Source: Escherichia coli (GTDB lineage: Bacteria > Pseudomonadota > Gammaproteobacteria > Enterobacterales > Enterobacteriaceae). From it: a stretch of DNA of 64,000 nucleotides. Below the pieces are notes generated by a model. The model made no database searches. It was not told the DNA's origin and was given only the letters and a program-made list of their open reading frames with translations. A program made the position numbers and the translations under genes. The stretch is from assembly GCF_030013595.1 (NCBI RefSeq), contig NZ_CP122772.1; one strand, given 5' to 3'. Position 1 is the first letter of the stretch; each line of letters starts with the position of its first letter. Shown in pieces: positions 24,313 to 27,364 of the stretch.

Positions 24313-24573
24313 ATGTCGCAGACAGAAAATGCAGTGACTTCCTCATTGAGTCAAAAGCGGTTTGTGCGCAGAGGTAAGCCTATGTCTGATTCTGAGAAAC
24401 AGATGGCCGCTGTTGCAAGAAAACGTCTTACACACAAAGAGATAAAAGTTTTTGTCAAAAATCCTCTGAAAGATCTCATGGTTGAGTACTGTGAGCGAGA
24501 AGGGATAACACAGGCTCAGTTCATTGAGAAAATTATCAAAGATGAACTGCAGAGACTGGATATACTAAAGTAA
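24313..24573 (+). CDS. repA2: RepA2/CopB replication-control repressor (IncFII-type)
   Basis: 86-aa product [23 protein letters not shown]... closely resembles R1/R100 CopB as I recall it. Confidence 0.9.
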
Positions 24574-24684
24574 AGACTTTACTTTGTGCCGTAGCATGCT
24601 AGATTACTGATCGTTTAAGGAATTTTGTGGCTGGCCACGCCGTAAGGTGGCAGGGAACTGGTTCTGATGTGGATGTTGTACAGG

Positions 24685-24775
24685 AGCCAGAAAAGTGAAA
24701 ACCCCGATAATCTTCGTCAAGTTTGGCGACTGAGAGAAGATTACCGGGGCTAACAAGAAACCGCATAGAAGCTGT
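24685..24775 (-). ncRNA. copA: CopA-like antisense RNA region (approximate bounds)
   Basis: Position between repA2 and tap/repA1 in a leader resembling the R1 CopT/CopA region; boundaries not determined. Confidence 0.35.
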
Positions 24776-24800
24776 TGCTCCATGCGGGGAGTATAGTTAT

Positions 24801-24875
24801 ATGCCCGGAAAAGTTCAAGACTTCTTTCTGTGCTCACTCCTTCTGCGCAACATAAGTGCAGGAAGGTGTGGCTGA
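24801..24875 (+). CDS. tap: Tap (RepA6) leader peptide, 24 codons, translationally coupled to repA1
   Basis: ATG 24801, 24 codons, stop TGA 24873-24875 overlapping the GTG start of repA1 at 24856, as in IncFII replicons. Confidence 0.5.
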
Positions 24876-25890
24876 AAGATACACTCCACAAAAACACTGG
24901 AGTCAGCTTCCGCCAGAAGAGCAAATCCGTTTCTGGGAGGACTATGAAGCGGGAATGGCGACCTCTTTCCTGGTGGAACCGGAAAAGAAACGCACGAAGC
25001 GCCGTCGTGGTGAGCACTCCACCAAACCCAAATGCGAAAATCCGTCCTGGTATCGTCCTGCGCGCTATAAGGCGCTGAGCGGGCAACTAGGGTACGCCTA
25101 TAACCGTCTGGTGAAAAAGGACCCGGCGACCGGTGAGCAGAGCCTGCGCATGCGTATGTCGCGACACCCCTTTTACGTGCAGAAACGGACGTTCGCTGGC
25201 CGTAAATATGCTTTCCGTCCGGAAAAACAGCACCTCCTCGATGCCATCTGGCCGGTTCTGGTCAGTTTCAGTGATGCGGGCACACATACCGTAGGCATGA
25301 GTGTTTCCCGTCTGGCCAGAGAAATCAGCCCGAAAGACAGCAAGGGGAAGGTTATTCCGGAACTGGAAGTGACGGTCTCCCGCCTTTCCCGTTTGCTGGC
25401 CGAACAGGTACGTTTTGGTGTGCTGGGTGTTTCAGAGGAAACCCTGTGGGACCGTGAAACCCGCCAGCGTCTGCCACGTTACGTCTGGATAACACCGGCA
25501 GGCTGGCAGCTGCTGGGCGTCGACATGGTAAAACTTCACGAACAGCAGCAGAAACGACTGCGTGAAAGTGAAATCCGCCAGCAGCTCATTCGGGAAGGTG
25601 TTCTGCGTGAGGATGAAGATATCTCCGTACATGCGGCCAGAAAACGCTGGTATCTGCAGCGCAGCCAGGATGCACTGAAACACCGTCGTGCAAAAGCGGC
25701 AGCCAGTAAGCGCGCCAGACGCCTGAAGAAACTGCCTGCCGACCAGCAGATTCATGAGATGGCAGAGTATCTCAGGAAGCGTCTGCCGCCGGATGAAGCC
25801 TATTTTTGTTCCGATGACCATCTGAAGCGACTGGCCATCAGGGAGTTGCGTCAGCTTGAACTGACGCTGGCTGCCCCGCCACCGCACTAG
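24856..25890 (+). CDS. repA1: RepA1-type replication initiator (IncFII/FIC-family replicon)
   Basis: 344-aa basic protein downstream of copB/copA/tap with GTG start; organisation typical of IncFII basic replicons. Exact RepA1 subtype not assigned. Confidence 0.75.
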
Positions 25891-26056
25891 ACAGCACCAT
25901 TTCCTCAGCACTGAATCATCGCCAGCCCCTCCGGGGCTTTCGGCGCTGGTTCCGCTCAGCCCAAAATCCGCAGTAATCACCTTAAATCCCCTCAGAGGGG
26001 CATATCTGCCCATAAAACCACGCATCAGTCATCAGAACGTGGCCACTTTGTTTCAG

Positions 26057-26065
26057 TTATCCACA
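26057..26065 (+). promoter_or_regulatory. DnaA box (TTATCCACA) in the presumed oriR region downstream of repA1
   Basis: Exact TTATCCACA ~165 bp after the repA1 stop, where IncFII oriR lies. Confidence 0.45.
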
Positions 26066-26810
26066 TAAATCCGCAAACAAAGAACTTTAAGAAGCTGCAA
26101 ACCTGAAACAGCAAACCTGCAATATAGTCTTAACCCCATTATTTAATCCCCTGCGTTGCTTCGCCGCAGGGAAAGTCTTTATCTCTGAAACCACTGTGAA
26201 CAAACACAAAGAGGCCTTCGCTTGCAGCGGCCAAAGCCGCGCCGCTCAGAATTTAAAAGCACCTCCCACCGCAAGCGGCGGGCCCCGACCGGAGCCATTT
26301 TAGTTACAACACTCAAATACAACCACCAAGAAAACCCCGGTCCAGCGCAGAACCGAAACCACAAAGCCCCTCCCTCATAACTGAAAAGCGGCCCCGCCCC
26401 GGCCCAAAGGGCCGGAACAGAGTCGCTTTTAATTATGAATGTTGTAACTACATTATCATCGCTGTCAGTCTTCTGGCTGGAAGTTCTCAGTACACGCTCG
26501 TAAGCGGCCCTGACGGCCCGCTAACGCGGAGATACGCCCCGACTTCGGGTAAACCCTCGCCGGGACCACTCCGACCGCGCACAGAGGCTCTCTCATGGCT
26601 GAAAGCAGGTATAGTCTGGCAGGGCTGGGAATGGGTAAGGTGAAATCTATCAATCCGTACCGGCTTACGCCGGGCTTCGGCGGTTTCACACCTGTGCTAC
26701 ATGTAACCACCGTATGCCGCCTTACATGCGCTGACGCGCATTATTTGCCTTGTTTCGTCTGAAAGTAATCACTATGATTAAATATGATTAACAACTAATC
26801 GAATATACAA

Positions 26811-27089
26811 ATGAAAAACAATACCGCACAGGCAACAAAAGTCATTACCGCGCATGTGCCATTACCTATGGCTGATAAAGTCGACCAGATGGCCGCCAGG
26901 CTGGAACGCTCCCGGGGCTGGGTTATCAAACAGGCGCTTTCTGCATGGCTTGCCCAAGAGGAGGAGCGTAATCGCCTGACGCTGGAAGCCCTGGACGATG
27001 TGACATCCGGACAGGTTATCGACCATCAGGCTGTACAGGCCTGGGCGGACAGTCTCAGTACTGACAATCCGTTACCGGTGCCCCGCTGA
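26811..27089 (+). CDS. RelB/ParD-family antitoxin (ribbon-helix-helix)
   Basis: 92-aa ORF immediately upstream of and abutting a RelE/ParE-like toxin; typical TA location next to an IncFII replicon. Confidence 0.75.
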   Translation: MKNNTAQATKVITAHVPLPMADKVDQMAARLERSRGWVIKQALSAWLAQEEERNRLTLEALDDVTSGQVIDHQAVQAWADSLSTDNPLPVPR

Positions 27090-27364
27090 TGGAACTGAAG
27101 TGGACCAGTAAGGCGCTTTCTGATTTGGCGCGGTTATATGATTTTCTGGTGCTGGCCAGTAAACCTGCTGCCGCCAGAACGGTACAGTCCCTGACACAGG
27201 CACCGGTCATTCTGTTAACTCATCCACGTATGGGAGAACAGTTGTTTCAGTTTGAACCCAGGGAGGTCAGACGGATTTTTGCTGGCGAGTACGAAATCCG
27301 TTACGAACTTAATGGCCAGACTATTTATGTATTGCGCCTGTGGCACACACGAGAAAACAGGTAG
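27089..27364 (+). CDS. RelE/ParE-family toxin
   Basis: 91-aa ORF with ...EYEIRYELNGQTIYVLRLWHTRE... resembling RelE/ParE; coupled to the upstream antitoxin. Confidence 0.75.
   Translation: MELKWTSKALSDLARLYDFLVLASKPAAARTVQSLTQAPVILLTHPRMGEQLFQFEPREVRRIFAGEYEIRYELNGQTIYVLRLWHTRENR

Follow-up and report, generated by a model that had tools for sequence, protein, structure and literature searches.

The 64-kb stretch of Escherichia coli DNA analysed here (the window, along which all positions are counted) most probably belongs to a virulence plasmid of porcine enterotoxigenic or Shiga toxin-producing E. coli (ETEC/STEC). The plasmid encodes F18 fimbriae and alpha-haemolysin and has two replication modules that are complete and evolved independently, a reading to which we give a probability of about 0.9. 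The segment under study, 24313–27364, contains the first of these modules followed by a toxin–antitoxin (TA) pair. We classify this module (24313–26738) from its sequence as a mosaic IncFII-family replicon, in which R100-like control and downstream blocks surround an initiator–origin core (24876–26258) of the RepFIC or I-complex (IncK/B/O/Z) type. The second module is an IncX1 replicon. For each part, we directly observed that it is present and complete, to which family it belongs and where the mosaic boundaries lie (Table 1). The original prediction of a mosaic IncF virulence plasmid with two replicons stands, as the replicons are flanked by an F-type tra region (1–22000; 99% identity to pig ETEC plasmids of 72–79 kb) and by the hly operon and F18 fed genes (42000–64000; 99.9% identity to the plasmid ETEC4090 unnamed2). 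It needed amending in that the second replicon is IncX1 and has two iteron copies in addition to the five predicted.

The mosaic structure of the IncFII-family module was delimited by comparison with R100. Nucleotide identity to R100 was 90.8% over positions 24163–24346, 87.9% over 24597–24875 and 93.3% over 26259–26738, and no nucleotide similarity was detected over 24876–26258. Alignment to the closest complete relative, ETEC4090 unnamed2, revealed the same pattern: homology breaks off exactly at the junction of the tap stop and the repA1 start, and resumes about 200 bp past the DnaA box. In the same slot (locus L002, 1798–2655), ETEC4090 unnamed2 has an R100-type RepA of 285 aa with its origin core, between near-identical flanks. 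This argues that the initiator–origin cassette was recently exchanged between otherwise similar F18-hly plasmids. The module has the features that mark the IncFII family, namely a CopB gene, a CopA RNA, the tap overlap, an initiator of the RepA superfamily and a downstream DnaA box. Of the features that mark the I-complex, it has the initiator and the cognate origin, but not the Inc RNA/repY control region.

Table 1. Features of the two replication modules and of the TA pairs beside them, with positions in the window.
Feature	Position	Strand	Evidence
copB (repA2), 86 aa, predicted to repress transcription from the repA promoter	24313–24573	+	PF10723 RepB-RCR_reg, 150.9 bits; NCBIfam PRK13702/NF010256, 139.9 bits
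CopA antisense RNA	24693–24783	−	Rfam RF00042, 89.2 bits (gathering 60), model 1–92, full length
tap, 24-codon leader peptide	24801–24875	+	PF08048, 51 bits; TIGR03475, 57.8 bits
repA1, replication initiator (probable start)	24868–25890	+	NF040977 RepA_IncFII_LM, 316 bits; Pfam IncFII_repA (PF02387), 24.4 bits (cut-off 22.9)
Spacer between repA1 and origin, 166 nt	25891–26056	+	Kept in plasmids with the same RepA type; unrelated to R100-like sequence
Origin core: DnaA box TTATCCACA (26057–26065), then a 63% A+T stretch	26057–26140	+	Motif and composition
Conserved downstream block, repA4/priming-site region	26259–26738	+	93.3% identity to R100; kept in 4/4 aligned replicons
Ribbon-helix-helix (CopG-type) antitoxin, 92 aa	26811–27089	+	Pfam RHH_1, 41.5 bits
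ParE/RelE-family toxin (predicted), 91 aa	27089–27364	+	Pfam ParE_toxin, 62.1 bits
StbDE-like TA pair	36830–37352	−	ParE_toxin, 53.7 bits; beside rep in IncX1 plasmids
Two DnaA boxes of the IncX1 origin	37995–38003, 38034–38042	+	Perfect-box scan
Four GATC (Dam) sites within 37 bp	38085–38121	+	Compared with 140 in the whole 64 kb
Five 22-bp iterons AAAGGTGGATGGGTACGCACTG, spacing 22, 33, 22, 22 nt	38216–38336	+	Repeat search
Two further iteron-like copies just 5′ of rep	38420–38441, about 38506–38527	+	Repeat search
IncX1 pi-type (Rep_3) initiator, 278 aa	38586–39422	+	Pfam Rep3_N, 70.9 bits; Rep3_C, 26.3 bits
148-aa membrane-like open reading frame	39462–39908	+	Synteny: always after IncX1 rep, where IncX plasmids have bis

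The control cassette is complete. Family scans and the list of open reading frames (ORFs) recovered, to within a few bases, all the parts that had been predicted here: copB, the CopA region and a 24-codon tap overlapping a repA1 with a GTG start. CopB is identical to WP_005768671.1 of pE2528C1_53. The CopA RNA folds into a small stem-loop I and a long stem-loop II, whose loop reads CGCCAA (minimum free energy −34.4 kcal/mol, z = −5.25), and a few stem-loop positions are unlike those of the R100-like allele. A sigma-70-like promoter (TTGAAC-17-TATACT; 24818–24790, minus strand) ends 7 nt before the CopA 5′ end, and on the plus strand the sequence complementary to CopA forms CopT, its target in the repA1 leader. 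Tap has the same residue as its R100 counterpart at 20 of 24 positions. The end of tap overlaps repA1 by 8 nt (GTGGCTGA), the same geometry as in R100 and in relatives annotated by the Prokaryotic Genome Annotation Pipeline (PGAP). By analogy, translation of tap may be coupled to that of repA1.

The initiator is where the module departs from R100. RepA1 had been described as longer than, and not resembling, the R100 protein, and this was confirmed (340 versus 285 aa). A direct BLASTP comparison with the R100 sequence gave an E-value of 0.33. Similarity is remote rather than close and limited to a central core, for which a BLASTP alignment showed 23% identity over 162 aa. Profile alignment with hhalign placed residues 119–252 of the RepA1 clade against residues 68–195 of R100 RepA1 (23% identity, E-value of 0.021, 124 columns), which is the same central stretch covered by the weak Pfam match and the BLASTP alignment. 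Because only this core aligns, we regard the two RepA1 types as distant relatives within one superfamily. RepA1 of the window differs so strongly from that of R100 because it falls in the RepFIC/I-complex clade of the IncFII RepA superfamily, whose members are about 340 aa long. It aligns end to end, at 96–98% identity, with annotated 340-aa RepA initiators encoded on plasmids of E. coli and E. albertii, among them one typed IncFIC. A database search returned 208 homologues. The 120 listed were 216–473 aa long, most full-length ones having 337–343 aa; all contained PF02387 and one was named RepZ. No frameshift or truncation of RepA1 was found in the alignment with its relatives. Both initiators are intact, RepA1 being full length and the Rep_3 protein of the second module identical to WP_001050931.1. 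An AlphaFold2 model of RepA1 built from a 19-sequence alignment had a mean pLDDT of 78.9; in it, residues 41–66 form a disordered basic linker.

Downstream of repA1, the predicted DnaA box TTATCCACA was found at 26057–26065, 166 nt past the stop codon. Within the origin segment, it is the one motif that the R100-like origin has in unchanged form. The window contains three perfect DnaA boxes (at 26057, 37995 and 38034), compared with 0.69 expected from shuffled sequences, and all three lie in the two origins. The spacer between repA1 and the box would correspond in position to the CIS element of R1 and ColIb-P9. The conserved block further downstream matches a region in which PGAP names a RepA4 ORF in a relative. 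The block would have a priming role, as is established for R1.

The second module bears out the prediction of a Rep_3 iteron replicon at 37995–39422, with its two DnaA boxes, four GATC sites and five iterons all in place. Its initiator, named ‘PI protein’ (B0ZE01) in UniRef, has an identical counterpart in a 37.7-kb conjugative Salmonella plasmid (NZ_CP005994.1) that is typed IncX1 only and has no other initiator. The 2.45-kb rep region (2451 bp) is 100% identical at the nucleotide level to that of many IncX1-typed plasmids. Several IncX1 backbone neighbours are also present: an stbDE-like pair, the 148-aa ORF, ddp3, DUF6685, and ParA/MipZ-like and resolvase genes. Given the identical initiator and these matching neighbours, we assign the second replicon to IncX1 rather than to an IncF replicon such as RepFIB. 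The Rep3 WH1 and WH2 domains, the initiator and origin shared with IncX1-only plasmids, and the iterons and DnaA boxes are all in keeping with this assignment. Elsewhere in the window, the iteron core AAGGTGGAT is absent. The two additional iteron copies just 5′ of rep are a probable autoregulatory operator, by analogy with other Rep_3 systems (pi, RepE). The stbDE-like pair consists of a Phd/YefM-like antitoxin (37101–37352) and a RelE/ParE toxin (36830–37111). The 148-aa ORF had no match in a Pfam scan.

From homology, we infer how the two modules would be regulated and would fire. In the IncFII-family module, by analogy with R1 and R100, CopB would repress the repA promoter, and CopA would pair with CopT in the leader and thereby block translation of tap. 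When tap is translated, the hairpin hiding the repA1 Shine-Dalgarno sequence and GTG would open, with coupling through the 8-nt overlap; without tap translation, the repA1 ribosome-binding site would remain closed. RepA1 would act mainly in cis, together with DnaA, on the origin 166 nt downstream with its DnaA box and A+T-rich stretch, and the leading strand would be primed in the conserved downstream block. The TA pair next to it would provide post-segregational stabilisation, with plasmid-free segregants being killed or arrested. In the IncX1 module, monomers of the pi-type Rep_3 protein would bind the five tandem iterons, which lie beside the two DnaA boxes and the cluster of Dam sites, and, with DnaA, open the adjacent A+T-rich DNA. 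The promoter-proximal iteron copies would mediate autoregulation, and handcuffing between the iteron sets would limit copy number.

Several points weigh against this picture of two complete and functional modules. Multi-replicon plasmids often have one replicon that is dispensable or silent. The predicted hairpin, in which the repA1 Shine-Dalgarno/GTG region pairs with tap codons, agrees with the R1 coupling model, but its energy cannot be told apart statistically from that of shuffled sequences (z = −1.68). A Foldseek search of the PDB with the RepA1 model returned no match with an E-value below 0.1, and searching PDB sequences with a profile likewise gave no relevant match. The weak Foldseek matches (E-value of 0.1 or higher) were recurrently winged-helix proteins (MarR family, Orc1/Cdc6, TFE-alpha), so that a winged-helix core is possible in RepA1. 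As no solved structure matched significantly, we can only infer how RepA1 would bind DNA. Finally, the label ‘RepFIC-type’ is indirect: it rests on the MOB-suite type of a relative with 96% identity, on the first two repA1 codons, which plasmid F has kept, and on the literature.

The first of these points leads to the alternative that deserves most weight, although we consider it possible rather than probable: only one replicon would be active, and the other would be a passenger from an IS91-mediated cointegrate in which an F-like plasmid of ETEC was joined to one of IncX1 type. Consistent with this, the IncX1-derived segment (about 30.8–44 kb) lacks the IncX1 conjugation genes and is both bracketed and interrupted by IS91 copies. 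Moreover, the IncFII module varies among related F18 plasmids while the IncX1 module stays 100% identical. Both modules are nonetheless complete in sequence, with intact initiators, origins and control elements, and no frameshift or truncation was found in either. Both replicons are also retained in many independent plasmids (PMC8798679; PMC10151945), which is unlike simple decay.

A different question is whether the combination was selected. The chimera of R100-like control and I-complex/RepFIC RepA1 and origin, beside an IncX1 replicon, might have been favoured because it allows coexistence with other IncFII plasmids of the same porcine strains, a proposal that we hold to be rather doubtful. 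The benefit would be escape from incompatibility through a different cis-acting initiator/origin pair, with a further replicon as back-up. In that case, the exchange of repA1 and origin (285-aa RepA in ETEC4090 versus 340 aa here) would be adaptive, not neutral.

Returning to the two-module reading, the start of repA1 affects both the length of the initiator and its overlap with tap. The longest ORF begins at a GTG at 24856 and extends to 25890 (344 aa), as in the original prediction; a second in-frame GTG at 24868 gives 340 aa. Initiation at 24856 is improbable, even though it yields the longest frame and this frame likewise overlaps tap: no Shine-Dalgarno-like sequence precedes it, whereas an AGGA lies 4 nt 5′ of the GTG at 24868. 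In R100 and in PGAP-annotated homologues, repA1 begins 8 nt before the end of tap, which is equivalent to 24868, and the exact 340-aa protein has been deposited and is found on 49 public contigs. Since homologue starts and R100 geometry both place repA1 there, the gene probably starts at 24868. The predicted GTG start and tap overlap are thus retained, and the predicted length is probably 4 aa too long.

The ParDE/RelBE-like TA pair that had been predicted beside the IncFII replicon is supported by Pfam matches for both proteins (RHH_1 and ParE_toxin). Its architecture is that of a type II ParE/RelE system: the gene of an antitoxin with a DNA-binding fold is followed by an overlapping gene for a predicted ParE/RelE-fold toxin, whose start overlaps the antitoxin stop by 1 nt (TGATG). 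The antitoxin is identical to WP_001178089.1, found in ETEC4090 and in IncK plasmids, and PGAP starts it 6 nt further upstream in relatives (94 aa). The exact 91-aa toxin sequence occurs on at least 1000 public contigs, and the toxin has weak matches to the solved ParE/RelE structures 6xrw and 7etr.

The surroundings of the two modules contain further small elements. Upstream of the IncFII-family module, an AS-pc02 antisense RNA match (RF02876, 58 bits; 22593–22759, minus strand) lies just 5′ of a 331-aa ORF (22874–23869, plus strand). Many F-like plasmids of ETEC have this ORF after traX, annotated as a hypothetical protein, and Pfam and NCBIfam scans gave no match to it. A Hok/Gef-family ORF (23946–24143, plus strand) is located immediately 5′ of copB; PF01848 is present in the identical gene of locus L013, and in plasmid F a hok-family gene likewise adjoins RepFIC. 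No Sok-type RNA scored above the Rfam threshold.

Two IS91-family copies (27456–29289 and 33835–35667) in inverted relative orientation flank about 4.5 kb between the IncFII-type and IncX1 modules, a stretch that includes a PemK/MazF-like ORF (29623–30096, minus strand). The two copies are likely the joints of a cointegrate. Within the IncX1-derived segment, three AgrB-like antisense RNA matches (RF02891, 56–70 bits) were found on the plus strand, at 31293–31380, 31933–32017 and 43781–43868. In relatives, dinQ/dqlB-type type I toxin genes are annotated beside such RNAs, which suggests several type I TA loci. Beside one IS91 end, a full-length match to ColE1 RNAI (RF00106, 72.9 bits, gathering 47; 29319–29418, minus strand) could point to a third, ColE1-type replicon, but this is highly improbable and we rejected it: sensitive blastn against a complete ColRNAI plasmid found only 96 bp of homology, megablast matches to small Col plasmids do not extend beyond this stretch of roughly 100 bp, and the roughly 550 nt of RNAII/ori sequence required by a ColE1 origin are absent, the PemK/MazF-like ORF occupying the space, so that the match is what remains of a small Col plasmid.

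Plasmids of this kind have been described before. The F18/hly plasmids of porcine STEC and ETEC were typed as IncFII/IncX1, with a replicon belonging to the RepFIc/RepFIIa family (PMC8798679), and in a Belgian survey of ETEC and STEC most virulence plasmids were multi-replicon, including combinations of IncF and IncX1 (PMC10151945). When positions 24100–27500 were searched against PLSDB and complete RefSeq E. coli genomes, no record exceeded 89% coverage at more than 93% identity. We considered and rejected a new combination of modules, because an exact-protein look-up showed that public draft assemblies carry the same replicon at 99.7–99.9% identity. The draft ETEC assembly L016 (GCA_030346565.1) matches window positions 14868–27186 at 99.88% identity, and the draft assembly L013 matches 14868–26741 at 99.70%. 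Both replication systems and the two-replicon layout are therefore already known, nothing in the module is new, and the result matters little beyond correct annotation. What it illustrates is mosaicism: a textbook CopB/CopA/tap cassette can accompany an initiator that bears no evident resemblance to R100 RepA1 and is almost the same as the RepA of IncK plasmids.

The same mosaicism affects replicon typing. MOB-suite labels in PLSDB (loci L002, L007 and L009) call R100 and R100-like replicons ‘IncFIA’, and for replicons with the 340-aa RepA they vary between IncFII, IncFIC and IncI1. Labels are inconsistent (IncFII, IncFIC, IncFIA, IncI1) because tools match different parts of mosaic replicons, and where replicons of the IncFII family are mosaic they should not be taken at face value. 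Such modularity of replicons is reportedly described by Saadi et al. 1987 and Osborn et al. 2000.

Compared with known systems, the first module shares with the RepFIIA replicons of R100 and R1 the order copB-copA-tap-repA1-oriR, the CopA RNA, the 8-nt overlap with a GTG start and the downstream DnaA box, and its leader and repA4/priming block are 88–93% identical to those of R100. Unlike in R100 and R1, RepA1 is 340 rather than 285 aa long, the origin core is unrelated except for the DnaA box, CopB is 51% identical to that of R100, and the adjacent TA genes are an RHH/ParE pair instead of pemIK.

The module combines FII-like control with a different RepA1, as do RepFIC (F, P307) and hybrids of repFIIA and repFIC, for example pAPEC-1. 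In plasmid F, the GTG GCT start is kept before the Tn1000 insertion, which has left the F repA1 with two codons. A relative whose RepA is 96% identical to that of the window is typed as IncFIC by MOB-suite. The control region of F, in contrast, is 78% identical to the window, and F carries the copB allele WP_000083834.1, whereas the allele here, WP_005768671.1, is of the R100-neighbour type. In pAPEC-1, a repFIIA region carries a repFIC repA (PMC2626276).

The resemblance to the I-complex (IncK/IncB/O/IncZ/IncI1) is confined to the other part of the module. In the IncK plasmid pESBL-117, repA, the origin and the RHH/ParE pair form one block with 94.9% nucleotide identity to the window, and the two RepA proteins are 95% identical. 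Homology to pESBL-117 begins at 24894, 26 nt inside repA1. Control there is by Inc RNA/repY, unlike the copB/CopA/tap cassette found upstream here. There is probably also a link between IncZ and RepFIC, for which this IncK comparison speaks.

The second module has the initiator, origin and neighbour genes of IncX1 plasmids (pOLA52-type; 37.7-kb Salmonella plasmids). Unlike in those plasmids, it here forms part of an F-like virulence plasmid, has no IncX1 transfer genes and is cut by IS91 copies. The plasmid as a whole most resembles the F18-hly IncFII/IncX1 plasmids pW1316-2, p15ODTXV and ETEC4090 unnamed2, which have the same two-replicon layout, IncX1 segment and hly and fed genes, and are 97.9–99.9% identical to it over most of 22.7–64 kb. 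ETEC4090 unnamed2 differs in its R100-type 285-aa RepA, and the segment from tra to the replicon in the window matches other ETEC plasmids (L016). For epidemiology, the window can be grouped with the IncFII/IncX1 F18-haemolysin plasmids already known from pig ETEC and STEC.

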